A DNA stretch of 64,000 bases from contig CAVXYW010000001.1 of the NCBI GenBank assembly GCA_963766295.1, forward strand, positions 666,815 to 730,814, read 5' to 3'. The DNA comes from an uncultured Actinomycetes bacterium (GTDB lineage Bacteria; Actinomycetota; JAICYB01). A program made the translations under genes and the position numbers. Below the pieces are notes generated by a model, which saw only the letters and a program-made list of their open reading frames with translations, was not told the DNA's origin and searched no databases. Below are positions 27,631 to 54,722 of the stretch, piece by piece. The number at the start of each line of letters is the position of its first letter. Within the stretch, counting starts at the first letter, position 1.

Positions 27631-27703
27631 GCCGGGTTAGCTCAGTGGTAGAGCAGCGGTTTTGTAAACCGCAGGTCGTCGGTTCAATCCCGACACCCGG
27701 CTC
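27631..27703 (+). tRNA. tRNA-Thr (anticodon TGT)
   Basis: Cloverleaf by hand: acceptor GCCGGGT/ACCCGGC, D-stem GCTC/GAGC, anticodon stem GCGGT/ACCGC with loop TTTGTAA (anticodon TGT), T-arm GTCGG-TTCAATC-CCGAC, discriminator T. CCA is not encoded. Confidence 0.8.
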
Positions 27704-39618: not shown

Positions 39619-40380
39619 ATGCCGATCGGGACATCAGTTGAAGGACACGTTGGAGTCATCGAGCTTCAGGATCCGCCGCACAATTTCCTGAACATCGAAC
39701 AGGTCAAAGCGGTGGCCGACGCCCTCGATGCGTTTGTCGCCGATATGGAGATCCGCGCAGTGGTTCTCGCCGCCCAGGGTAGGTCGTTCTGTGCAGGGGC
39801 AGGCTTTGGAGGAAGCGGTGGAAGCGAGCAGGTCGGTGGTTCCACTGAGGATCTGTACGTGCAAGCCGCACGGCTCTGCGAAGCCGAGCTCCCATTCGTC
39901 GCCGCAATTCAGGGGCCGGCGATAGGCGGGGGTTTGGGTTTCGCACTGACCGCGAACATGCGAGTTACGTGTCCCGAGGCGCGCTTTTCCGCGAACTTCG
40001 TGAAGCTGGGGATCCACCAAGGGTTCGGGCTTTCCGTAACGCTTCCCGACCTGATCGGTCCGTCAAAGGCCGCCGAGGTCCTGCTGATGGGCCGCCGATA
40101 CAACGGTGAAGAGGCCACAGCATTAGGCCTTGCCGACGTTTGCGTCCCACTCGAAAAGGTGCGCGAGACCGCGATGGAGCTTGCAGCGGAGATCGCCGCG
40201 GGCGCGCCGCTGGCGATCCGCGCGATCAACAAGACGTTGCGAGCCGGCTTGGCCGAGCGTGTTCGCGACGCAACCAAGCACGAGGCGGCGGAGCAGGCCA
40301 AGCTTTTCGCAACGCAAGACTCGCGCGAAGGGATCGCGTCGGTGAACGAGCGCCGGCCCGGCAACTTCACCGGCCGGTAA
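39619..40380 (+). CDS. enoyl-CoA hydratase/isomerase family protein
   Basis: Crotonase fold pattern (AAQGRSFCAGAGF, AAIQGPAIGGG). Confidence 0.8.
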   Translation: MPIGTSVEGHVGVIELQDPPHNFLNIEQVKAVADALDAFVADMEIRAVVLAAQGRSFCAGAGFGGSGGSEQVGGSTEDLYVQAARLCEAELPFVAAIQGPAIGGGLGFALTANMRVTCPEARFSANFVKLGIHQGFGLSVTLPDLIGPSKAAEVLLMGRRYNGEEATALGLADVCVPLEKVRETAMELAAEIAAGAPLAIRAINKTLRAGLAERVRDATKHEAAEQAKLFATQDSREGIASVNERRPGNFTGR

Positions 40381-40448
40381 GGGCCGAAGCGCCTTCTCCG
40401 CATCGGGGCCCATGCCGGGTCGCTCGCTCCCCGGTAAGCTCATCGCTC

Positions 40449-41207
40449 ATGTCCACCGCACAGATCAACGGGATAGAGCTCGGTTACGAAGCCTCGGGCG
40501 AGGGCCAAGCCGTCTTCTTCACGCACGGCTATCAAGCTTCAAAGGCGATGTGGCAGCCGCAGCGTGAAGCTTTGGACGGCGCCTATCGCGTGATCACTTG
40601 GGATCTACGAGGGCACGGAGAGTCGGGTATCCCCGACGATCCCGCCATGTACTCGCACGATCTGATGATCGGCGACATGGGTGCGCTAATCGATCACTTG
40701 GATGCCGAGCCGTCCGTCCTCGTCGGACACTCCCTCGGAGGCTATGCGTCGTTGTGCTTCTACCTCGAACGTCCGCAGTCCGTGCGCGCGTTGGTTCTAG
40801 TCGGCACAGGCCCAGGGTTCCGCGATCCCGAAGCTCGTGGGAAGTGGAACAGCATGGCCGAGCGGTTCGCTACACGTTTGGATGAAGACGGTTTGGACAT
40901 CCTCAAGCGCGCGAGCGCTGAGGTCAGCACGGCCAACCACCGATCGGCGAACGCGCTGGCCTTGGCGGCCCGCGGGATGCTGGCTCAATCGGATTCACGG
41001 GTGATCGACGCGATCGCCGAGACCTCGGTCCCGACGCTGGTGCTGATCGGGTCTGAAGACAAGCCTTTCATCGGGTCTAGCGAGTACATGGCCAAGAAGA
41101 TCCCGGGGGCCGAGCTGGTGACAGTGGATGGGGGAGGGCACGCCGCGAACATGGAACGGCCCGAGGCCTTCAACGCAGCCCTGCGGAGCTTCCTGGACCG
41201 GCTCTAG
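40449..41207 (+). CDS. alpha/beta hydrolase
   Basis: GHSLGG nucleophile elbow, a HG region near the N-terminus, and ATG 40449. The upstream part of the track ORF is an out-of-frame extension. Confidence 0.7.
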   Translation: MSTAQINGIELGYEASGEGQAVFFTHGYQASKAMWQPQREALDGAYRVITWDLRGHGESGIPDDPAMYSHDLMIGDMGALIDHLDAEPSVLVGHSLGGYASLCFYLERPQSVRALVLVGTGPGFRDPEARGKWNSMAERFATRLDEDGLDILKRASAEVSTANHRSANALALAARGMLAQSDSRVIDAIAETSVPTLVLIGSEDKPFIGSSEYMAKKIPGAELVTVDGGGHAANMERPEAFNAALRSFLDRL

Positions 41208-41394
41208 CAGCACGATTAGGCCCTTTGGAGGGGCCGCCGGTAGACTCTTGACTCGGGAATCAAGGGGCCACTGGGAGGGGTTCCTGGCTCGAATCGTAGA
41301 GCTGCTACGTGAGCGAACGCGTGCTCCGCTTGCCCTGATCGAGCGAGCGGGCGCGGCGTGGTCCGCACCCTCGGATTGGGTTCGCCGCGCCATC

Positions 41395-43485
41395 ATGCTC
41401 GTCGCAGCCATCGGCGTTTGGCTGATCCTCGACAACACGCTGGACAGAGGACTGCCGGCCGGGATCATCATCCTCGGCCTGGTCTTCGGCTCCCTCTACG
41501 CCCTGACGGCTATCGGGTTGGTCCTGATATACCGCGCGAACAGCGTTGTGAACTTCGCACAAGCCGAGTTGGGCGGTATCGCTGCCGTTTTGTCGATCCA
41601 GCTGGTTCTGCAGTACCAGGTCAATTACTTCGCTTCGCTGATCGTGGGGATCATCGCTTCGACGCTGATCGGCGCGCTTGTCTACACGTTCATCATTCGA
41701 AGGTTCCGGCGGGCGCCCAGGCTCATACTCGCCGTCGCAACCATCGGCATCGCGCAGATATTGCAGGGAGGGTCCATCCTCATCTCGCTGTTGTTCGGCG
41801 AGATCCCTGCGGGACGGCGATACGAGACGCCCTTCGACGTATCCTTCTCGGTCTTCCCGGTCATCTTCCGCAGCGATCACCTGCTGGCGATGATCATCGT
41901 CCCGGTCGTGATGGTCGCTTTGGCTTTGTTCCTTAAGTTCACCGACTACGGCATAGCGATCAGGGCAGCGGCCGAGAACGGCGACCGAGCCAATCTGCTC
42001 GGCGTGCCGATCCATTACCTGCATTTGGGCGTGTGGTCGATCGCCGCTTTCCTGTCGGCGCTCGCTGCGCTGCTGCGCACACCGATCGTCGGGTTCTCGG
42101 CGTTCACGGGCGTTACGGGGAGTGGCAACGCGCTTCTGCTTCGAACGCTGGCCGCTGCCGTGATCGGACGTATGGAAAGCCTGCCTAGAACTGTTGTGGC
42201 GGCTCTCGGCCTCGGCATCTTCCAGGAGGCCGCTTCGTGGACCTTCTCGAACACCGTGATCGTCGACGCGTTCCTCGTCCTGATCATCCTCGGCGCCCTT
42301 CTCGTCCAGCGTGGACTGATCAGCCGTGCAGCCGAGACCGGTATGTCGACGTGGCGGGCGATCCGCGAGGTGCGTCCGATCCCGGCGGAGCTCAGGAACC
42401 TGCCCGAAGTCCGGTGGGGAGTTTGGGGCCTGCGCGCGGTCATGGCGGCTTTCGTGCTGACCCTTCCTCTTTGGGCAAACACCGCGCAGGAAGAGGTCGT
42501 CGGACTCATCTACATCTACGCGATCATCGCCGTTTCCTTGGTGATCCTCACCGGTTGGGCCGGTCACATCTCGCTGGGTCAGTTCGCACTCGTCGGCTTC
42601 GGAGCGGCAACTACCGCTGTTCTCTACGGACGGCACGATTTCGATTTCTTCCTCGCTTTGATTTGCGGGATCGCGGTATCCGCATTGACCGCGCTGGTGA
42701 TCGGCTTGCCGGCTTTGCGCATCCGGGGTCCGTTCCTGGCGGTAACGACGCTGGCGTTCGCGGTGACGGCCGGCTCGTACTTCCTGGAAGACCGGTATTT
42801 CCCATGGTTCGTCCAGGACCGTATCGAAAGACCTACGTTCTGGGACCGCATCCCGCTGGACGCCGATTGGAAGATGTACTACGTCACGTTGATCGGGCTG
42901 GTCCTCGCTCTGGGTGCGGCCTGGAACTTGCGCCGGTCGCGCACCGGCCGAGCGTTGATCGCCGTGCGCGACAACCAGCTGGCCGCCGAGAGTGTGAGCA
43001 TCAACTCAACGCGCCTGAAGCTGACCGCGTTCGTGATATCGGGCGCGATGGCTGGGTTCGCCGGAGGGATCTACGCATTGCATCAGAACGGCATCTTCAC
43101 CGGTTCGTTCGATGCGGAAGTCAGCATCCGGCTGTTCTCCATGGTCGTTATCGGAGGTCTCGGCTCCCTTCCCGGTGCGCTACTGGGAGCCGGGTACGTC
43201 GAAAGCACTGAGTTCTTCCTATCCGGTGGATGGGCGCTTCTTGCTTCTGGTGCGGGGATCCTCGTCCTGCTGATGTTCCTGCCCGAGGGCCTCGGAGGTT
43301 TGATGTATACGGTCAGGGACGGGATCCTCCGCCGCATCGCACGGCGCCGCGACCTCGTCGTGCCGAGCTTGCTGGCCGACGTCCGCATCGAGACCGGCGA
43401 GATCGACATCGACATGACATCCGTTCTTTCCGGCAACGGACGCGTCGACAGAGCTTTGCCCAAGGCAAAGACGGGGAGCCGCTGA
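41395..43485 (+). CDS. branched-chain amino acid type ABC transporter permease, fused LivH-LivM
   Basis: About 696 aa. The first half is LivH-like (SLYALTAIGLVLIY..NFAQAE) and the second half is LivM-like (IIAVSLVILTGWAGHISLGQFALVGFGA). The start is uncertain (ATG 41395; the frame is open from 41128). Confidence 0.7.
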   Translation: MLVAAIGVWLILDNTLDRGLPAGIIILGLVFGSLYALTAIGLVLIYRANSVVNFAQAELGGIAAVLSIQLVLQYQVNYFASLIVGIIASTLIGALVYTFIIRRFRRAPRLILAVATIGIAQILQGGSILISLLFGEIPAGRRYETPFDVSFSVFPVIFRSDHLLAMIIVPVVMVALALFLKFTDYGIAIRAAAENGDRANLLGVPIHYLHLGVWSIAAFLSALAALLRTPIVGFSAFTGVTGSGNALLLRTLAAAVIGRMESLPRTVVAALGLGIFQEAASWTFSNTVIVDAFLVLIILGALLVQRGLISRAAETGMSTWRAIREVRPIPAELRNLPEVRWGVWGLRAVMAAFVLTLPLWANTAQEEVVGLIYIYAIIAVSLVILTGWAGHISLGQFALVGFGAATTAVLYGRHDFDFFLALICGIAVSALTALVIGLPALRIRGPFLAVTTLAFAVTAGSYFLEDRYFPWFVQDRIERPTFWDRIPLDADWKMYYVTLIGLVLALGAAWNLRRSRTGRALIAVRDNQLAAESVSINSTRLKLTAFVISGAMAGFAGGIYALHQNGIFTGSFDAEVSIRLFSMVVIGGLGSLPGALLGAGYVESTEFFLSGGWALLASGAGILVLLMFLPEGLGGLMYTVRDGILRRIARRRDLVVPSLLADVRIETGEIDIDMTSVLSGNGRVDRALPKAKTGSR

Positions 43486-46400
43486 TGGCCAAAGCTCCTA
43501 CCCGAAGAAAACCATCCGCACGGAAAGCTGCTCCCACCGAAGAGATGAAGACCCCCGAGATGTTGGCTGCGGAGATCGCGGGAGCCAAGCTACCGCCGCG
43601 CATACTCCCCGACGAGCCGCCGCCGCCCGAGTACGGACGGTTCGATCCGCGTCGCATCACCCATCCGGCGCCGTTGTTCCCGCTCGTCGTGCTGTTCGGG
43701 CTAAACGCTGTAGACGAGCTCGATCGTGTTGCGTTCGGTGTTCTCACCCCTGAGATCCGCGACTGGTTCGGTCTGTCGCTCTTCTCGGTAAGCCTGATCG
43801 CGACCCTGGTTGTCCCCGTGTCGCTCCTGCTCGAGTTGCCCATCGCCTATTACGCCGACAGGAAGAACCGCGTCCGAATGGCTGTAGCAGGGGCCAGCGT
43901 CTGGGGCGCCTTCTCCTTGTTCACAGGTATGGCCTGGAACGTTGGAACTCTGATCGTAGGACGGCTGGGCTCGGCAACCGGCCGCTTGTTCAACGCGACC
44001 CATCGCAGCCTCCTCTCCGACTATTTCCCGACCTCTTCTCGAGCTCGTGTCTTCTATGCGCACGGACTCGCGAATTCCCTGGGGCAGCTGATCGCTCCGC
44101 TGGCGGCCGGCCTTCTGGCTGCGGCCTTCACTTGGAGGACGCCTTTCGTTCTTTTCGCCATCCCTACGGCCTTTTTCGTGTTTCTCGGTTTGCGACTGCG
44201 GGAGCCCAAGCGCGGTATGCACGAGCGGCTAGAGGCCGGAGCCGACCAAGAGACCGCAGAGATCGAAGATGATGCGCCGGGCTTCGCGGAGACCTTCCGA
44301 GTTCTGTTCTCGGTGCGATCGGCTAAGCGCATCTACTACGCCTTGCCGTTCCTCACTGCGTCGTTCTTCGGTTTCGCCACGTTCCTGAGTGTCTTCTACA
44401 ACGACGAATACAACATCGGTCCGGGTACGCGTGGTGCGATCTTCTCGTCCATCGAGGGCGTCCAGATCATCTCGATCATCATCGGTGGGATCTTCGTCCA
44501 GCGCTTCGTCAATCGCAGTCCGGCACTTGCGATAAAACTGCTTGGTGTGTCGGCCATCGGTGTGTCGGCCGGGATAATCATCCTCGCGCTCTCTCCGAAT
44601 CTAGGTGTCGCGATCGCCGGCCACGCGATCCTGTCCTTCATGAGCGCGCCTCTACTCCCGGGAGCGCTCGCTGTGATCTCGTTCATCATCCCGCCGAGCA
44701 TGCGCACTCTTGGTTTCTCGACCGGGAACCTCTGGCTCCTGTTGGGTGCGCCGGCCATCCCGATCGTGGGCGCGATGGGCGACGCCTTTGGGATACGCGT
44801 CGCGCTGCTGATCATGGTGCCGATCTATCTGTTTGGTTCATTCCTGATCGCTTCTTCGGGCTTCACGATCGAAGCCGACATGGAACGAGTGAGAGTCTCG
44901 GCACGGGCGCAGGCGGATATGCGCCGGAGCCGTCGAGAGGGAAGTGCCAAGCTGCTCATCGCCCGCGACCTCGATGTTGCCTACGACGGCGTTCAGGTGC
45001 TCTTCGGAGTCGACTTCGAGGTTTCGGACGGGGAGATCATTGCCCTCCTCGGCACCAACGGTGCGGGGAAATCCACTCTCTTGCGAGCGATCTCCGGCTT
45101 GCAGCCGGCCAGCGGAGGCACCGTTCTGTTCGACGGACGCATCATCTCGGGCGCCGACCCCGTGCAGATCGCCCGCCTCGGTGTTGCGCAGATACCCGGC
45201 GGACGAGCCGTCTTCCCGACGCTCACGGTCGAAGAGAACATCCGCGTGGCCGGATGGATCTACCGCGGCGATGAGGAGCACGTTAAAGCCTCTACAGAAC
45301 GGATACTCGAGCACTTCCCTGTGCTGCGTGACCGCTGGGAAGCGCGGGCCGGCGACCTTTCCGGTGGCGAGCAGCAGATGCTTTCTCTCGCCCAAGCCTT
45401 CATCTCCAAGCCGAAGCTGCTCCTCATCGACGAGCTCACCCTCGGTCTCGCGCCAACCATCGTCGAGAAGCTGCTCGAGATCGTTCGTGAGATCCACGCG
45501 CAGGGAACGACCATCGTCCTCGTCGAGCAGTCGGTGAACATCGCATTGAAGCTTGCGAAGCGCGCCGTGTTCCTCGAGAAGGGTGAGGTGCGCTTCTCCG
45601 GACCTACCAAGGATCTTCTCGCACGTCCCGACGTCTTGCGCGCTGTGTTCCTCAAAGGGGCATCGTCGATGACCGACGGCAACGGCGAACTTCGGCGGGC
45701 AGGACCAGGGCGAACGAAGTCGACAAGTGCCCTTAAGGACGGAGAGGTCGTCTTGCAGTCGATCGGCGTAAGCAAGCATTACGGCGGTGTGCTCGCGGTC
45801 GATGGTGTCGATCTCGAGCTACGTCAGGATGAGATCCTCGGGATCATCGGCCCAAATGGGGCCGGCAAAACTACCTTCTTCGATCTTCTTACCGGCTTCA
45901 CCCCGCTCGACGGGGGCCGCGTCATCCTCAACGGTGAAGACGTCACCACGTGGCCGGCCAGCAAGCGAACGAAACACGGTCTCGGTCGGTCTTTCCAAGA
46001 CGCACGCCTCTGGTCTTCACTCACCGTGCGCGAAGCCGTCGCCGTCGCTTTCGAGCGAACGATCACCGAGCGGTCGCCTGTGCACGCGATGTTCGGTCTT
46101 CCGGTGGTCGGGGATGCCGAGCGGAATGTGAAGCGTCGCGCGGAAGAGCTCATCGAGCTCTTGGGGTTGAAGGCGTTCGCCGACAAATTCATATCCGAGC
46201 TTTCTACAGGATCACGACGCATCGTCGAGATCGCTACGCTCCTCGCGCATCGTCCATCCGTCCTTCTTCTCGACGAGCCTTCCTCGGGTATCGCTCAGAA
46301 GGAGACCGAAGCGCTCGGACCACTGCTGAAACGCGTGCGTGAGTACATGGACGGGAGCCTGGTTGTCGTCGAGCACAATGTGCCGTTGATCTCGACCTTG

Positions 46401-46643
46401 GCCGATCGCATAGTGGCGATGGACCTCGGACGCGTGATCGCCGACGGCACGCCGGACAAGGTGCTCAACGACCCGGCCGTCGTCGAGTCGTACCTCGGCA
46501 CCAGCGGCTACAAGGAGCTCACAGGAGCGGGCGACGGCCGTAAGCGGCGGAGCGCGGTACGTAAGCGCCCGACACGCAAGAGCGCAGTGCGCACTCCTCG
46601 CAAAAAGCCGACACGCCGCCGGACAACACGTAAGGCTCGATGA
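43486..46643 (+). CDS. tri-domain fusion protein: MFS-like 12-TM domain + LivF-like ABC ATPase + LivG-like ABC ATPase, with a Lys/Arg-rich C-terminal tail
   Basis: ATG 43486 overlaps the permease stop (TGATG). MFS signatures: GLNAVDELDRVAFG and YADRKNRVRMAVAG. First NBD: GTNGAGKSTLLRAISGL...LSGGEQQMLSLA...LLIDE. Second NBD: GPNGAGKTTFFDLLTG...LSTGSRRIVEIA...LLLDEP. The tail is RKRPTRKSAVRTPRKKPTRRRTTRKAR. One uninterrupted frame. Confidence 0.65.
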
Positions 46644-47485
46644 AGCGCGCGGTCGCCGGCGTTTTGTGCAGCCTGCTCATGTTCGCCGCTTGCAGTCTGG
46701 GTGAGCGTGAGGATTGGGCCGAAGCAATGCACGACGCATTTGATACGGCCCAACGCGCCAAGACGGCCAGCGCCTTTGTGCATGTCGACTTCAAAGCGAT
46801 CGATATCGTGGGTCGGTCCACACCCGATCAGCTGTTTCACGACCTCAATGGTGTAGTGGATTTCAGAACGCGCAGATCCCAAACCATCGAGACAACGGGT
46901 CGCAAGCAAGCGCTGATCTTCGATGATCTCGTTGCTTACCTGCCGCGCAGCGAAACTTCGACGGGGAAAAAGTGGGTCAGCACTGGTTTCCTGGAGGAAC
47001 CTGAGGAGGACGTCGACGTCGAGGACAGGCGGTTCTCGCTAGCCGTCCCGATGGTTTCTCCGATCATGTCGTTGGAGCTTCTGATGGGCGCTCTTACGGG
47101 AAGCACTCGCCGCGTTGGGGCCGAAACGGTTCGGGGCACACAAACGACTCATTACAGGGCTAAGGTCGCGCCAGACAACGCCGCGCGCGAGATAGACGAC
47201 GAAGACCGCAGGGAGGGGATCCTTCGGGTCCTGCAAACGATGGGTGCGAACAGCGAAGTGATAGATGCCGACGTTTGGATCGATAGCGACGGGCTGGTTC
47301 GACGGGTCAGCTACGGACTCGAGCAGCGGCAGGATCGAGTCAACTCGTTCCGGACCACCATCACGACCGACTATTTCGATATCGGCCGCGACGTGAAGAT
47401 CGACGTGCCGACCGACACGATGAGAACGGACGACTTCCAGCAGTTCGTCATCGAATTCGTCCGCGAAGCCGTTACGTTCGGCTAG
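46640..47485 (+). CDS. secreted lipoprotein of unknown function (translationally coupled to the ABC fusion gene)
   Basis: ATGA overlap with the upstream stop. The signal and lipobox are LLMFAACS. Confidence 0.5.
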   Translation: MKRAVAGVLCSLLMFAACSLGEREDWAEAMHDAFDTAQRAKTASAFVHVDFKAIDIVGRSTPDQLFHDLNGVVDFRTRRSQTIETTGRKQALIFDDLVAYLPRSETSTGKKWVSTGFLEEPEEDVDVEDRRFSLAVPMVSPIMSLELLMGALTGSTRRVGAETVRGTQTTHYRAKVAPDNAAREIDDEDRREGILRVLQTMGANSEVIDADVWIDSDGLVRRVSYGLEQRQDRVNSFRTTITTDYFDIGRDVKIDVPTDTMRTDDFQQFVIEFVREAVTFG

Positions 47486-47563: not shown

Positions 47564-49399
47564 TTATCTGAAGACCGGCGGATCTTCGCGCGCCCACTCG
47601 CCGTTTCGGAATCTCTTTCCGCCGTATGTTTCGATGTACGCGCCTTTCACTCCGTCGTAACCGTTGGCGTCGGGATTCCACCAAACCTCGCGGGCGTCGT
47701 CGATGGCGGTGTGGTCGTGAGCACCCTTAGTGCCGTCCGGGCCATCTTGATAGGACGTGTAACCGACTTGGAAGTCGGGCGCTCCGCCGGGCGGCGATCG
47801 GAAGATGGCTTCAGCCATGTTCACGGGAGTGAGGTTGGGGCCTGTTGCTTGCAGGAAGCTGAACACCCGCATGGCAAGGAAGTAGCCGCCGTCGGTTCCG
47901 GCTGCGAGCTTGGTTCCCGTCGCCGCTTTGTACGTCTTCGGCGGTTCACCGTTGCCACCGAGGATCTTCCCCGTCGGACCGAGCTGGCTCATGCCGAACA
48001 GGCTTCCTCTCACCTGGTTGGGTTCCCACAACCTCGGAACGTTGTCCACGTCGGTAAGGGCCACACCGATGACGATCCATTCCGGGTTGTACCCCTGACC
48101 CTGCGCCGATTGCGTGAGGAAGATCGGTGAGATCGGATCGCAGGTCAGGACGATCGTGGTGACGCCCTCGGCCTTGAACTGGATGATCGCCTGTGCCGCT
48201 TCGTCGGCGAACCTCGAGATGTCGAGCGTGTAGTTGTAACGGGACCCCTTGGGGGTGCCGTACTTCGTTTGCACATCTCGCTCGAAGATGTTGCCGCACG
48301 TCTGGTATGCGTCGTTGTCGGGGATGTAGATCGCATACTTACGCGTCTTATCCTTGTCCAACCCCTTCGCATACTTGGCAGGCTTCTTGGCGAGGCGCTT
48401 CCCGTAGTACTCAGCCACTTGATATGTGATCCGCTCGCATTCCGGCGGTCCGGCCCAGAGGTAGGGGTGATGCTTGCGGTAAAAGGTCTCCGGGTAATAC
48501 GCGGCTGCGTCGATCACCATGAGCTTTCGGGCTGCGGCGCACTCGGAGAAGGCCGGCCCACCGTCCGTCACGGCGAAGGCTTTCAGATCGTTGACGATGA
48601 CGTTCACGTCCGCGCAGGCGCCCTCCTTGCCTCGACCTTGCGCCTCTTGTGTTTCGTCGCCGAACTGAGACTCCCACTCGATGAGCTTGACTTGGCGTCC
48701 CCAGAGCTCGAAGACCTTGTTGAAGTACTTGTAGAACTCGAGGCGCGCAGCATCGGTCACGTCTTCGGATGCACCGCCGGCCTGCGCGACGACGGCGTCA
48801 ACGGCTTGTGAGTTGGCCGAGTCCGGGAACTTCCGCCGGACGATGATGATCTCCTTCTCGGTAACGCCGCGGTACGTCGCGCCAGGGTTCTTACCGTCCC
48901 ACTTCGGATAACAGGGCGCCGCGTAAGCCGACCACGGGATCTGCCGAACGTTCGGCCCACAATCGAAACCGCTTTTGGTCTTGCCGGTCAGCGTCCAGGC
49001 CAAGGGGTCGAATCCGGCCGGTGTAGCGGCCGTGGCAACAGTCGACGGGCCCGCTATAGCCGTTGCGCTCTCGACCTTCGTCTCAGACGGGCCGGTTGTT
49101 GCCGAGGGAGAGTCTCCGGACGTCTGGGTTGTCTCTCCGGACGAGACCTGACTGGCGGTTTCTGTCGGCGCGTCGTTGTCCCGCAACGGGATCAGAACGA
49201 CTATGAGGCCCCAGATGGTGAGCATTGCGTAGAAGGGCAGGTACTTCTGGATGTTGCGGACCACGCGATCGGGCCCGGTCAGTGCGTGACCGTTGGTCTC
49301 CAGAGCTTCGACACGCTCAGCAAATCGATCGAATGCATTGTTGAGCCGATCGATCGATTGTTGAATTGCGCGGTTGGAGTCGGGGCCGCGAGTAGCCAC
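47564..49399 (-). CDS. membrane-anchored extracytoplasmic protein, paralogue 1 (candidate ABC solute-binding protein)
   Basis: Proposed GTG start at 49399, 2 nt after the paralogue 2 stop. N-terminal cytoplasmic motif SIDRLNNAFDRFAERVEALE, one TM (YLPFYAMLTIWGLIVVLIPL), a Ser/Thr/Ala-rich linker, then a conserved ectodomain of about 500 aa. Confidence 0.5.
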   Translation of the reverse strand: MATRGPDSNRAIQQSIDRLNNAFDRFAERVEALETNGHALTGPDRVVRNIQKYLPFYAMLTIWGLIVVLIPLRDNDAPTETASQVSSGETTQTSGDSPSATTGPSETKVESATAIAGPSTVATAATPAGFDPLAWTLTGKTKSGFDCGPNVRQIPWSAYAAPCYPKWDGKNPGATYRGVTEKEIIIVRRKFPDSANSQAVDAVVAQAGGASEDVTDAARLEFYKYFNKVFELWGRQVKLIEWESQFGDETQEAQGRGKEGACADVNVIVNDLKAFAVTDGGPAFSECAAARKLMVIDAAAYYPETFYRKHHPYLWAGPPECERITYQVAEYYGKRLAKKPAKYAKGLDKDKTRKYAIYIPDNDAYQTCGNIFERDVQTKYGTPKGSRYNYTLDISRFADEAAQAIIQFKAEGVTTIVLTCDPISPIFLTQSAQGQGYNPEWIVIGVALTDVDNVPRLWEPNQVRGSLFGMSQLGPTGKILGGNGEPPKTYKAATGTKLAAGTDGGYFLAMRVFSFLQATGPNLTPVNMAEAIFRSPPGGAPDFQVGYTSYQDGPDGTKGAHDHTAIDDAREVWWNPDANGYDGVKGAYIETYGGKRFRNGEWAREDPPVFR

Positions 49400-49401
49400 G
49401 C

Positions 49402-51270
49402 TTACTTGAAGACCGGTGGGTCTTCCTTCGGCCACTCGCCGTTGCGGAAGCGCTTTCCTCCGTGCGTTTCGACGTAGGTCCCCTTCTTCCCGTCGGCTCC
49501 CGTGCCGCTGGCGTTCCACCAGATCTCGCGCGAGTCGTCGATGCCGGCGTGGTCCTTGGCTCCCTTGGTGCCGTTGGAGCCGTCCTGATACGAGATGTAG
49601 CCGACGTCGTAGTTCGGTGCGCCAGCGGGCGGCAGGGCCCAGAACGCGTCGGCCAAGGTCTGCGGCGTCAGATTGGGACCGGCCGCCTGCATCGCATTGA
49701 AGGCCGCTATGAAGTTCATGTAGAACGGCTGACCCGTTGTTCCCGCCGGGATGTTCGTTCCAGTAGCCGCTTTGTAGCTCTTACCCGATTCACTTTCCGG
49801 GCCGAGGACCTTCTTCGTAGCGCCGACCTGGCTCATCCCGAACAGACTTCCTCGTATCTCTTCCCCGTCCCAGGTGCGGGGGAAGTTGTCCGAGTCGTTC
49901 AGTGCCACTCCGATGTTGAACCACTCCGGCCACCAGTTCTGAGCCTTGGCCGATTGCGTGAGGAAGACCATGGATATCGGGTCGCAGGCCATCACCAATG
50001 TGGTTGCGCCGGCGGCATTGAACGAGATCGCAGCATTCGCCGCCTCGTCGGCGAATCGGGAGATATCAAGTGTGTAGTCGTAGCGCGGCCCGGGTTGAAC
50101 GCCGTACTTGTCGCGTGCCTCCTTCGTTGTGATGCCAACGCAGTACTGATACTCCGGGTTGTTCGGGACGTAGGTAGCGAAAACACGTTTCTTGTCCTTT
50201 TGGAGGTTCTTCGCCCACTTGGCCGGCTTATTTGCCAGACGTTTTCCGACGTACTCAGCCACCTGGTAAGAGATCCGCTCGCACTCCATCGTGGTGTGCC
50301 AGACGTATGGATGGTGCTTCTTGTACCAGCGCTCCGGGAAGTAAGCCCCGCCCCAGAACACGACCATCTTTCGCTCAGCAGCACATTCTGCAAAAACGTT
50401 CGACGAACTCATCACCGCGAAGGCCTTGATGTCGTTCTTGATCACGTTCGCGTCGGCGCATGCACCTTCCTTGCCCTTGCTCTGCGCTTCTGCCGTTTCA
50501 TCGCCGAACTGAGACTCGTAGATCACCCACTTAACCTTGCGACCCCAGAGCTCATAGACCTTGTTGAACCAGGGTCGCCAGACGTCTCCTACCGCCCGCG
50601 CTACCTCGGTCGACGCGAATCCGGCGGCCGTGGTGGCGGCCTCAACCGCTTGCGAGTTGGCCGACTCGGGGAAGCGGCGAACAACGATGGTGATCTCCTT
50701 GGCAGTTACCCCGTGGGAGGTCGCGCCTGGGTTCCCTTCCGTCCACTTCGGATAGCACGGCGCGGCATAAGCGGACCACGGGATCTGCCGAACTCCCGGC
50801 TTGCAGTCATAGTCTCCGGCGGTTTTGCCCTCGAGGTTCCAGGCAAGCGGATCGAAGCCCGCCGACACGTTGGCTGACGGCGCCGCTGCCGCTGGCCCGG
50901 CGGTGGTCGCCGGGCCGGATCCGTTCGAATCTGTTCTGGTTTCGGTCTCAGCTGCGACCTCCGTGCCTGGCGTGAGGCCCGTGGAGGTGTCGGATGTGGT
51001 GACTTGGCTGGCTTCTTCACGATCGTTGTCGGAGCGTGTGGGGAGGATCAAGAACATGAGAAGGAAGATCGCTGCGAGGGCGAAGAAGGGCATCCACCGC
51101 TGGACGAAGGTCGTGAAGCGGTCGGCCTCGCCTGCGGGGCCGCCGTTGCCGCCGACCTCCAGCGCGTCGATGCGGTCGGCCAGGCGCTCAAAAGCGTCCG
51201 CTAGGCGGTCGACGGAATGCTGTAAGGACGCGTTCGCGCCTCTGGTGCTGCGAGCTCCCCGTGTTGCCAA
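49402..51270 (-). CDS. membrane-anchored extracytoplasmic protein, paralogue 2 (candidate ABC solute-binding protein)
   Basis: TTG start. Same architecture as paralogue 1: SVDRLADAFERLADRIDALE, TM MPFFALAAIFLLMFLIL, a linker, and an ectodomain collinear with paralogue 1 (GFDPLAW, IPWSAYAAPCYPKW, KGKEGACAD, FRNGEW..EDPPVF). Confidence 0.5.
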   Translation of the reverse strand: MATRGARSTRGANASLQHSVDRLADAFERLADRIDALEVGGNGGPAGEADRFTTFVQRWMPFFALAAIFLLMFLILPTRSDNDREEASQVTTSDTSTGLTPGTEVAAETETRTDSNGSGPATTAGPAAAAPSANVSAGFDPLAWNLEGKTAGDYDCKPGVRQIPWSAYAAPCYPKWTEGNPGATSHGVTAKEITIVVRRFPESANSQAVEAATTAAGFASTEVARAVGDVWRPWFNKVYELWGRKVKWVIYESQFGDETAEAQSKGKEGACADANVIKNDIKAFAVMSSSNVFAECAAERKMVVFWGGAYFPERWYKKHHPYVWHTTMECERISYQVAEYVGKRLANKPAKWAKNLQKDKKRVFATYVPNNPEYQYCVGITTKEARDKYGVQPGPRYDYTLDISRFADEAANAAISFNAAGATTLVMACDPISMVFLTQSAKAQNWWPEWFNIGVALNDSDNFPRTWDGEEIRGSLFGMSQVGATKKVLGPESESGKSYKAATGTNIPAGTTGQPFYMNFIAAFNAMQAAGPNLTPQTLADAFWALPPAGAPNYDVGYISYQDGSNGTKGAKDHAGIDDSREIWWNASGTGADGKKGTYVETHGGKRFRNGEWPKEDPPVFK

Positions 51271-51491: not shown

Positions 51492-52385
51492 GTGCGAATA
51501 GGGGTGTTCTCTCCGGCGGCATCGATCGAGGGATTGGTGGCCGATCTGAAGGCAGCGAAGGACGCCGCACTCGAATCGGTTTGGGTGCCCCAAGTGTTCG
51601 CCCTCGACGCGCTGACATCGTTGGCGGTTGCCGGGCAAGAAGTGCCGGGCATCGCGGTGGGAACGGGTGTGGTCCCCACATATCCGCGTCACCCATCGGC
51701 GCTTGCGTTACAAGCGCTGACAACGCAGCAGGCATTGGACGGCCGGCTGACCCTCGGTATCGGACTGTCGCATCAGATGGTCGTGGAGAACATGTGGGGC
51801 TTCTCCTTCGATCGTCCCGGCCGGCACATGCGCGAGTACCTGTCGATCCTTATGCCCTTATTGCGCGACCGTAGCGTCGCGTTCGAGGGCGAAACGTTGA
51901 AGACGATGGGGCAGGTGCAGATCCAAGGCGACGTGACGGCGCCACCCGTCGTTGTTGCGGCGCTGGCTCCCCAGATGCTTGCGATAGCCGGAAAGCTCGC
52001 CGACGGCACGATCACGTGGATGACGGGGATAAAAACGATCGAGTCCCACATAGCGCCGCGCATAAACAAGGCGGCGGCCAACGCTGGTCGCCCGTCCCCG
52101 CGCGTAGTGGTGATGCTTCCGGTCTCGGTTACCGACGATGAGCCCGAAGCTCGGGAGCGCGCGGCCAATGCGTTCGTTATCTACGGCCAGCTCCCGTCCT
52201 ACCGCGCGATGCTCGACCGTGAGGGAGCCGAAGGGCCGGCCGACGTAGCGATCATCGGCGACGCGGGCTTCGTGCGCGGTGAGATCGACAAGCTGTTCGA
52301 AGCCGGCGCAACCGATTTCGTCGGCATCACATACGCGAACCGAGAGAAGACTCTGGAGACCCTTTCCGACATCGTTCGTGGGTGA
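51492..52385 (+). CDS. LLM class F420-dependent oxidoreductase (luciferase-like monooxygenase family)
   Basis: TIM-barrel LLM pattern MRIGVF...VWVPQ...GIGLSHQ. GTG start. Confidence 0.7.
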   Translation: MRIGVFSPAASIEGLVADLKAAKDAALESVWVPQVFALDALTSLAVAGQEVPGIAVGTGVVPTYPRHPSALALQALTTQQALDGRLTLGIGLSHQMVVENMWGFSFDRPGRHMREYLSILMPLLRDRSVAFEGETLKTMGQVQIQGDVTAPPVVVAALAPQMLAIAGKLADGTITWMTGIKTIESHIAPRINKAAANAGRPSPRVVVMLPVSVTDDEPEARERAANAFVIYGQLPSYRAMLDREGAEGPADVAIIGDAGFVRGEIDKLFEAGATDFVGITYANREKTLETLSDIVRG

Positions 52386-53350: not shown

Positions 53351-53929
53351 CTAGGCGGCGTTCAGCGGTGCCGCTCCGAAGGCGACGTTGAATCGCCGGC
53401 ACCAGACGACGACCGACTTGTACTTCTCGACGTCGGTTCCGTCGGGGACCTGATAGTTCTGGTTACCGATGTTCCCCTTCAAGGCGCCAAGGTCGATGAA
53501 GTCCTGCGCGAACTGGGTCCCGCTCGCGGTTGACGCCGCGGTCGAGAGGTAGATGACGAGATCCGGACCGTTCTCGGTGCTGAAATCTTCGAATCGCACG
53601 TAGTGATGCCCGTCGTCGGCCTTACTGAGCGTCGCCTTGCCGGTGGTCTCGTGATCGATGCTGCGGAAGGAGCCGCTCAAGGTCATCATGGCGCCGTCCG
53701 TCATGGCATCGTCCTTGGCCATGGCGCCGTGGTCGGCCATCGCGTCGTCCTCGCTCATGGCATCGCCGCCGGAGCCGGGCGCCTGCTCGCTGACCGTCTG
53801 GTCGATGAACAGCGCCTGGGGCTGGAACCAGTAGAGGACTCCTCCGACCGCGGCCAGCACGAGCACGACGGCCGGGATCCACACCTTGGGACGGAGCAGC
53901 TTGCTTGTGAGCGTGGCGTTGGTGTCCAT
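53351..53929 (-). CDS. DM13 domain protein with an N-terminal membrane anchor
   Basis: Real start MDTNATL (ATG 53929, AGGAGG RBS), one TM, then LSGSFRSIDHETTGKATL...ENGPDLVIYL...YKSVVVWCRRFNVAF matching the DM13 pattern. Confidence 0.55.
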   Translation of the reverse strand: MDTNATLTSKLLRPKVWIPAVVLVLAAVGGVLYWFQPQALFIDQTVSEQAPGSGGDAMSEDDAMADHGAMAKDDAMTDGAMMTLSGSFRSIDHETTGKATLSKADDGHHYVRFEDFSTENGPDLVIYLSTAASTASGTQFAQDFIDLGALKGNIGNQNYQVPDGTDVEKYKSVVVWCRRFNVAFGAAPLNAA

Positions 53930-54038
53930 TCCGGCCTCCTGATCGCTTACTCCCCACGGTAGCCGAGGATCGATTACGGACTTCTTACAGGCCCCGAATT
54001 CGTAAGGCCCCGGCAAGGATTCGCGCGGAGAATGGTGT

Positions 54039-54722
54039 ATGGCCCAGCGCGTCCTGATCGTCGACGACGACCCCATCGTGCGAGACGTCCTCTCGCGCTA
54101 CCTCGCGCGGGACGGCTTCGATGTCGACACCGCAGCCGACGGCGAGGCCGCCCTCGGAGCCATTGCAGACGGCTCCCCCGACCTTGTCCTGCTGGACCTG
54201 ATGCTCCCCAAGCTCGACGGCTTCGACGTTTTCGAACGCATGCGCAGCTTCTCCGACGCACCGGTGATCATGCTCACGGCCAAAGGCGAGGAGACGGACC
54301 GTATCGCCGGCCTGCGCATGGGCGCCGACGACTACGTCAACAAGCCTTTCTCTCCAAAGGAAGTCTGTCTTCGCGTGCAGGCCGTACTTCGTCGAACCAA
54401 TTCTTTCGCCGAGGCCGCCACAGAGCGACTCGAGTTCAACGATCTCGAGATCGACCAGGCCAGCCGGCGCGTTCTGGTCCGCGGCGAAGAGGTCACGTTG
54501 ACCCCCAAGGAATTCGATGTGCTCGCACTTCTCGCTCGAAACCCCGGACGCGTCTTCGGACGGCTCGACATCCTGTCGGAATTGTGGGACTTCGCGTTCG
54601 ATGGAGACCCGTCGACGGTCACCGTACACATCAGGCGCTTGCGCGAGAAGGTCGAGAAGGATCCGTCCGTTCCTGCCCACATCGTCACTGTGTGGGGGAG
54701 CGGCTACAGGTTCGATCCGTGA
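54039..54722 (+). CDS. OmpR-family response regulator
   Basis: VLIVDDDP...DLVLLDLMLP receiver domain plus a winged-helix C-terminus ending VWGSGYRF. Confidence 0.9.
   Translation: MAQRVLIVDDDPIVRDVLSRYLARDGFDVDTAADGEAALGAIADGSPDLVLLDLMLPKLDGFDVFERMRSFSDAPVIMLTAKGEETDRIAGLRMGADDYVNKPFSPKEVCLRVQAVLRRTNSFAEAATERLEFNDLEIDQASRRVLVRGEEVTLTPKEFDVLALLARNPGRVFGRLDILSELWDFAFDGDPSTVTVHIRRLREKVEKDPSVPAHIVTVWGSGYRFDP

Follow-up and report, generated by a model that had tools for sequence, protein, structure and literature searches.

Which protein delivers substrate to the ATP-binding cassette (ABC) transporter encoded in a 64,000-nucleotide (nt) stretch of DNA from an uncultured Actinomycetes bacterium (positions 666,815 to 730,814 of contig CAVXYW010000001.1, assembly GCA_963766295.1; hereafter the window)? 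The transporter combines a fused LivH-LivM permease with fused LivF- and LivG-like ATPases. An initial annotation of the window had seen no recognisable binding protein for it, and our Pfam and NCBIfam scans of the genes flanking the operon agree, revealing no further binding-protein gene beside the two considered here. Just past the end of the operon, on the opposite strand, lie two tandem genes, A and B. We propose, with a probability of about 0.8, that they encode two membrane-tethered type I (LivJ/LivK-like, Peripla_BP_6-related) solute-binding proteins (SBPs) that serve the adjacent fused LivHM/LivFG transporter. The two genes are:

49402..51270, minus strand: gene A, predicted transmembrane (TM)-anchored type I (LivJ/K-fold) SBP of 622 amino acids (aa) with a TTG start (open reading frame, ORF; public gene call P0001; AlphaFold2, AF2, model with a predicted local distance difference test score, pLDDT, of 87; Foldseek matches to LivJ/K-type SBPs)
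47564..49399, minus strand: gene B, predicted paralogous TM-anchored SBP of 611 aa with a GTG start (ORF; public gene call P0270; alignment to A)

The pair is arranged head to tail, as the initial annotation had described: gene A ends in TAA and the GTG of gene B, at 49399, follows two bases further on. A Shine-Dalgarno-like GGGAGG stands 5-10 nt upstream of the TTG of gene A, and the public gene calls of the contig give identical products for both genes (622 and 611 aa). Aligned over their full length, A and B are identical at 354 of 629 positions (56%, E = 0), and this alignment contains every one of the shared motifs that had been quoted for them. Calling the proteins "giant" was nevertheless an overstatement at ~620 aa, and the ectodomain measures ~475 aa rather than ~500. 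The pair had also been placed "downstream and antisense" of the ABC locus; it does lie on the opposite strand, and it is better described as convergent with the operon, with 78 nt between the stop codons. The layout proposed for both proteins (cytoplasmic helix, TM helix, Ser/Thr/Ala/Glu linker, ectodomain) is upheld by hydropathy and by the AF2 model. From the N- to the C-terminus, in gene A numbering, and then for gene B:

51154..51240, minus strand: residues 11-39 of A, conserved, predicted amphipathic cytoplasmic helix SLQHSVDRLADAFERLADRIDALE (AF2 helix H11-39, pLDDT 70-83; alignment of 22 N-terminal sequences)
51040..51096, minus strand: residues ~59-77 of A, predicted signal-anchor TM helix and juxtamembrane motif, QRWMPFFAL ... 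LILPTR (hydropathy; AF2 helix 49-75)
50830..51039, minus strand: residues ~78-147 of A, predicted disordered linker rich in Ser, Thr, Ala, Glu and Pro (pLDDT <50 at 77-118 and low to ~140; unconserved in the alignment)
49405..50829, minus strand: residues 148-622 of A, SBP ectodomain (pLDDT >90; Foldseek E 1e-12 to 1e-9 to LivJ/K-type SBPs; invariant columns)
~49295-49378, minus strand: helix of B
~49184-49240, minus strand: TM helix of B
~47567-48988, minus strand: ectodomain of B

Do these ectodomains belong to a known class of binding protein? A and B themselves remain below the gathering threshold of PF13458 (Peripla_BP_6; 31.7 bits), but relatives that are 53-55% identical exceed it (P0077, 40.2 bits; P0107, 33.6 bits), as do the remote members P0165 (37.7 bits) and P0249 (47.8 bits), so that the family sits at the edge of this model. 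Structure prediction points to the same group. Modelled with AF2 from 76 homologues, A reaches an overall pLDDT of 87, rising above 90 in the ectodomain, and a Foldseek search of the PDB with this model returned 688 matches at E<=0.001 (best E 1.1e-12). Among the top 50 (E 1e-12 to 4e-9, with a target-normalised template modelling score of 0.6-0.72 for the top bacterial matches), 41 are bacterial or archaeal LivJ/LivK-type SBPs or sensors built on one, for example 4kv7, 4m88, 4q6b (with Leu), 3ipc, 2liv, 4n03 (a fatty-acid binder) and 3eaf (archaeal); the other nine are homologous type I ectodomains of the animal atrial natriuretic peptide (ANP) and gamma-aminobutyric acid type B (GABA-B) receptors. 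Because relatives pass Peripla_BP_6, the AF2 model is confident and the Foldseek matches converge on one group, we consider it settled that the modelled fold is that of a type I periplasmic binding protein of the LivJ/LivK group. The structure search suggested in the initial annotation is thus positive, and its alternative that the proteins might form a new family stands at the level of a subfamily, a large, mostly unannotated and very divergent branch, and not at the level of a new fold. We therefore file A and B as a very divergent subfamily of a known superfamily: the two proteins fail the strict Pfam test, but relatives pass it and the structural comparison is positive.

Is the neighbourhood of the transporter conserved? 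We mapped five protein types across a set of 40 related loci from genomes, plus several contigs from metagenomes. In ~33 of 36 non-redundant loci, one to three A/B-family genes lie directly beside the fused LivHM gene, with the fused ATPase genes nearly always next, a positive outcome for the co-occurrence test that the initial annotation had suggested. The complete set is present in ~26 loci, and contig ends truncate several others. The commonest order, on a single strand, is SBP (one to three copies), LivHM, then LivFG with or without a major facilitator superfamily (MFS) domain; even the remote member P0224 shows this arrangement, without the MFS part. In the clade of the window (L001, L003, L007, L014, L016), the SBP genes run opposite to the operon, which there includes a lipoprotein gene. 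The tandem pair of the window, convergent with the operon, recurs in L001 and L003, with orthologues of A at 73% and 84% and of B at 75% and 83%, and given these separate A and B orthologues, the duplication is older than the L001, L003 and window lineages. The loci come mostly from Acidimicrobiia and related Actinomycetota, with the isolates Salinilacustrithrix flava and Actinospongicola halichondriae among them. Conserved linkage to LivHMGF-type genes, the mark of a HAAT-family binding component, is thus a property of the A/B family.

Fold and conserved linkage to LivHM/LivFG together lead us to regard A and B as the missing binding components of the ABC system, as the initial annotation had proposed; a fold unrelated to SBPs and a lack of co-occurrence would have spoken against this, and neither was found. 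Several points do weigh against it. Neither A nor B has any Pfam or NCBIfam match, even at E<=10, no more than 7 of the 76 members aligned score against PF13458 at E<=0.01, and sequence searches of the PDB with A or with the family profile gave chance-level matches only (a short-chain dehydrogenase/reductase, ATP synthase subunit b). In the clade of the window, the SBP genes converge with the transporter operon and are not co-transcribed with it. Lastly, the evidence is wholly computational and no ligand can be named from the data.

What would the two proteins do for the transporter? They would be inserted N-in/C-out through an uncleaved N-terminal signal-anchor helix, with a flexible linker of ~70 residues allowing the two-lobed ectodomain to move at the cell surface. 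Orientation is predicted only, from the Arg-rich, basic N-terminus, the N-terminal TM helix, an acidic stretch past it and six conserved Cys of the ectodomain (156, 172, 271, 296, 330 and 377, invariant or nearly so in the family alignment); these Cys fit an extracytoplasmic location. Directly after the TM helix no small-x-small signal-peptidase site is obvious in A (LILPTRSD) or B (VLIPLRDN), and a lipobox is absent from both. The ectodomain would close on a small ligand between its lobes and dock on the fused LivH-LivM permease, and ATP-driven import would then be powered by the LivF and LivG ATPase domains of the neighbouring fusion protein. A and B are an old and conserved pair; they most likely widen or split the substrate range of one translocator and, by analogy with LivJ and LivK of E. 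coli, they probably differ in specificity.

The operon that they would serve is encoded on the plus strand and comprises:

41128..43485, plus strand: fused LivH-LivM permease with two BPD_transp_2 halves (Pfam PF02653 in two stretches, E 4e-62; NCBIfam LivH/LivM/UrtB/UrtC halves)
43485..46643, plus strand: fusion of an MFS domain with LivF-like and LivG-like ATPases, 1052 aa (Pfam MFS_1, E 4.5e-32, and ABC_tran twice; NCBIfam; public gene call P0272)
46500-46640, plus strand: Arg/Lys-rich C-terminal tail of the ATPase, 47 aa, net charge ~+18
46640..47485, plus strand: predicted LprG/LppX-fold lipoprotein with a lipobox, LMFAAC (matches the NCBIfam SCO4651 family at 82.8 bits, cut-off 65; AF2 pLDDT 85.6; Foldseek)

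The true start of the permease probably lies downstream of the ORF start at 41128, as its orthologues are 692-702 aa long; five candidate LivHM starts had no exact match in the protein collection. The MFS domain is fused to the ATPase in ~25 related loci and absent in L018, L021, L024, L029, L041 and L045. NCBIfam places it among generic MFS families only, and its only two sequence matches in the PDB are Spinster-type, namely 6e8j, a Spinster-like transporter that matches over the N-terminal half (E 2.7e-9), and human Spinster homolog 1 (E 7e-4). Our literature search found nothing specific on an MFS-ABC fusion or on this gene arrangement. In other clades, the slot of the lipoprotein gene after the ATPase gene is filled by a ~400-aa protein with one N-terminal TM helix; a relation of these proteins to the lipoprotein was considered and rejected (hhalign probability 0.3%), and they have no Pfam match:

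L008:17695-18927, L011:9632-10837, L013:17076-18284, L034:18232-19395: ~400-aa downstream proteins

As for the ligand, there is a weak hint that it could be a hydrophobic acid or a lipid-like compound. This hint comes from the genes for an enoyl-CoA hydratase and an alpha/beta hydrolase that closely precede that of the permease (39619-41207, plus strand), from the LprG-fold lipoprotein and from the Spinster-type matches of the MFS domain. L001 and L003 have this hydratase and hydrolase pair as well, but the family at large does not. As listed (from 40140), the ORF of the hydrolase overlaps the hydratase gene by 240 nt, and its true start is probably later. A survey of the related loci for conserved neighbours that might point to a ligand recovered only the transporter genes; acyl-CoA ligases occur in 5 loci, too few to be informative, and one apparent conserved neighbour cluster was discarded as an antisense ORF artefact. 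Other genes around the pair include a luciferase-like monooxygenase gene (51492-52385, plus strand) that diverges from gene A and also neighbours the pair in L001 and L003, and a DM13-domain protein gene (53351-54076, minus strand) that also neighbours it in L001. The sole Rfam/ARAGORN match in the whole window is a tRNA-Thr (TGT) at 27631-27703, plus strand.

A and B are also unusual at their N-terminus. A TM anchor with a conserved cytoplasmic segment had been flagged as atypical for LivK-type proteins; we agree, and these are the parts that the SBP function leaves without explanation. An N-terminal hydrophobic (TM) helix is found in 225 of 231 full-length family members and a lipobox-like motif in only one of the 231. 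The neighbouring LprG-like protein has a normal lipobox, suggesting that the organism makes lipoproteins and that the TM anchor is not forced by missing lipoprotein machinery. Across the family, the helix is framed by a basic-aromatic motif at the cytoplasmic edge, typically H-x-R-R-Y-x-P-F-Y, and by P-T/S at the outer edge. The cytoplasmic part itself comes in three forms: (i), that of the window, an amphipathic helix SLQxSVDRLxxAFxRLAxRLxxLE with a hydrophobic stripe spaced 3-4, an Arg stripe and an acidic face; (ii), a shorter form, EDPFLRRSxKTALH; and (iii), a minimal form of ~10 residues. In A, the hydrophobic stripe of helix 11-39 consists of residues 16, 20, 23, 27, 30, 34 and 37 and the conserved Arg are 22, 29 and 33; L16, S19, R22, L23, F27, R29 and R33 are each conserved in at least 90% of the 22 aligned N-termini. 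A Gly-rich loop then connects to the TM helix, where hydropathy peaks at 2.34 (residue 60).

Such an N-terminus invites other explanations of what A and B are. They could be sensors or receptors, whose binding domain on a single TM helix signals occupancy inward, to the ATPase or to another partner, in the manner of ANP and GABA-B ectodomains. It is true that Foldseek also returns receptor ectodomains (1dp4, 1t34, 4mr7) and that a conserved cytoplasmic helix would not be expected of a pure anchor. However, the cytoplasmic part has only ~55 residues and no output domain, members with short N-termini (10-20 residues) keep the linkage to the transporter, no conserved regulator gene lies nearby and linkage to LivHM/LivFG is nearly universal, making signalling improbable as the role of the pair. 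The N-terminal region could also be a long, cleavable signal peptide of the twin-arginine translocation (Tat) type, which would leave the mature proteins free or wall-associated: an RR pair immediately precedes the hydrophobic segment in 140 of the 225 family members with this helix, and some LivK-type proteins are annotated as Tat substrates (e.g. 3i45). Yet A has QRW and B has QKY in place of RR (others have RG or a single R), no A-x-A-like site is found past the helix, the hydrophobicity of the segment (2.2-2.8) equals that of a TM helix and the conserved motif is R-Y-x-P rather than S-R-R-x-F-L-K. With both the twin Arg and A-x-A absent, A and B were rejected as Tat substrates, and we judge cleavage of this kind very improbable.

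It could further be argued that the true binding component is the lipoprotein, whose gene comes directly after that of the ATPase, and that A and B serve something else. Its ATG overlaps the ATPase stop codon (ATGA), and a lipobox is the usual anchor of Gram-positive SBPs. On the other hand, its predicted fold is that of LprG, LppX and LolA and not that of a periplasmic binding protein (Foldseek matches of its AF2 model are M. tuberculosis LprG, LppX and LprF, and also LolA). Moreover, it is confined to the clade of the window (6 loci), while A/B-family genes go with the transporter everywhere, so we give this assignment hardly any credence.

If A and B are tethered SBPs of the LivHM/LivFG transporter, what might their conserved anchor do? 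The cytoplasmic helix and juxtamembrane motif would probably keep the SBP associated with the transporter, with the membrane domains of the latter or the Arg/Lys-rich tail of the ATPase as candidate contacts. That the anchor contacts something is suggested by two observations. On the one hand, the same kind of anchor (HxRRYPxWY-TM-LPV) is carried by ~245-aa proteins whose genes lie downstream of those for the transporter, chiefly where the MFS domain is missing; past the anchor, these proteins continue with a Pro-rich linker and a Cys-containing domain, and they have no Pfam match:

L021:16336-17097, L029:16240-16980, L039:7001-7741, with equivalents in L018 and L024: ~245-aa anchored proteins

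On the other hand, the Arg/Lys-rich ATPase tail accompanies long cytoplasmic N-termini of the SBPs and is absent with minimal ones in 24 of 27 informative loci, the exceptions being L017, L041 and L045. This association is confounded by the shared ancestry of the loci, which counts against reading a role of the cytoplasmic helix from it. We also asked whether loci with the MFS domain favour one type of N-terminus, and saw no such link. It is just as conceivable that the helix rests on the surface of the membrane or brings A and B together as a pair. A more ambitious possibility is that the whole N-terminal module (amphipathic helix, R-Y-x-P-F-Y motif and TM helix ending in P-T/S) is a dedicated docking device acting from the cytoplasmic side, for example against the ATPase tail or the MFS domain; it might, in addition, relay information through the membrane without involving the permease. 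Combined with the fused MFS domain and the LprG-fold lipoprotein, such a device would make a hybrid ABC/MFS machine, possibly for lipid-like substrates. We regard this extended proposal as speculative and rather unlikely. A search for the anchor on other ectodomains, using an 80-residue N-terminal profile against a 5.8-billion-protein set, gave no match, not even to family members, and is hence uninformative; in the literature, we found no conserved cytoplasmic extension with a juxtamembrane motif on a bacterial SBP.

How do tethered SBPs of this kind compare with known systems? With LivJ, LivK and the other cluster-B type I SBPs (PF13458) of HAAT importers (LivHMGF), A and B share the two-lobed alpha/beta fold and the partnership with BPD_transp_2 permeases and LivG/LivF-type ATPases, and there too paralogous SBPs can share one translocator. 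There are, however, clear differences: (i), A and B are only ~12-16% identical to solved members; (ii), their ectodomain is ~100 residues larger, having gained a Cys-containing segment at the N-terminus and a beta extension at the C-terminus, and has six conserved Cys; (iii), those SBPs are secreted or lipid-anchored, whereas A and B appear held by a TM helix at the N-terminus that comes with a conserved cytoplasmic segment. In transporters of the OpuA and GlnPQ type, one or more binding domains are fused to the permease and thus stay permanently beside the translocator; A and B have no such covalent fusion, their tether being a separate TM helix and their contact with the transporter putative. 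Membrane-attached SBPs are also known from archaea, Sulfolobus for instance: a hydrophobic segment at the N-terminus, with a Ser/Thr-rich linker behind it, keeps the protein at the membrane, and the Sulfolobus examples are made with short, processed class III (pilin-like) signal peptides (PMC2797410). The A/B family has the hydrophobic segment and the linker in common with them, but its N-terminal region, of 10-65 residues, is conserved and apparently unprocessed, and its members belong to Actinomycetota. Finally, the neighbours of A and B, rather than A and B themselves, recall the mycobacterial LprG-Rv1410 operon, in which a lipoprotein and an MFS protein act in lipid transport (PMC6519032, PMC10576003, PMC4709180): the window likewise has an LprG-fold lipoprotein gene beside MFS-encoding sequence. 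Here, in contrast, the MFS domain is fused to LivF/LivG ATPases, and no Rv1410-type chain is among its PDB sequence matches.

The family to which A and B belong is large and mostly unannotated. A profile search of 1.84 billion cluster representatives retrieved 718 proteins at E<=1e-30, a number that grows to 1827 at E<=1e-10, and the named members that we encountered are labelled "hypothetical protein", except for two called "ABC transporter substrate-binding protein". At its margins, remote members of ~1000 aa (P0150, P0155 and P0249) and L046:8001-10952 carry an N-terminal secreted domain of ~450 aa, then two TM helices and then the SBP domain; the ~450-aa domain of P0150/P0155/P0249-type members has no Pfam match, and the gene for P0249 directly follows a MacB-type (FtsX/MacB_PCD) permease gene rather than LivHM.

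A and B would thus fill the apparent gap of the neighbouring ABC locus, a binding protein, and offer a function for a large family (718 clusters at E<=1e-30), mostly of metagenomic Acidimicrobiia, which has a bearing on what genomes of these uncultured Actinomycetota are taken to say about nutrient uptake. The kind of protein is already known and the architecture of the transporter is odd; the one feature that may hold something new to learn is the conserved anchor. It might show how tethered SBPs stay at their transporter, or talk to it, and if it does act as a docking device, it would represent a new way of coupling an SBP to its transporter.

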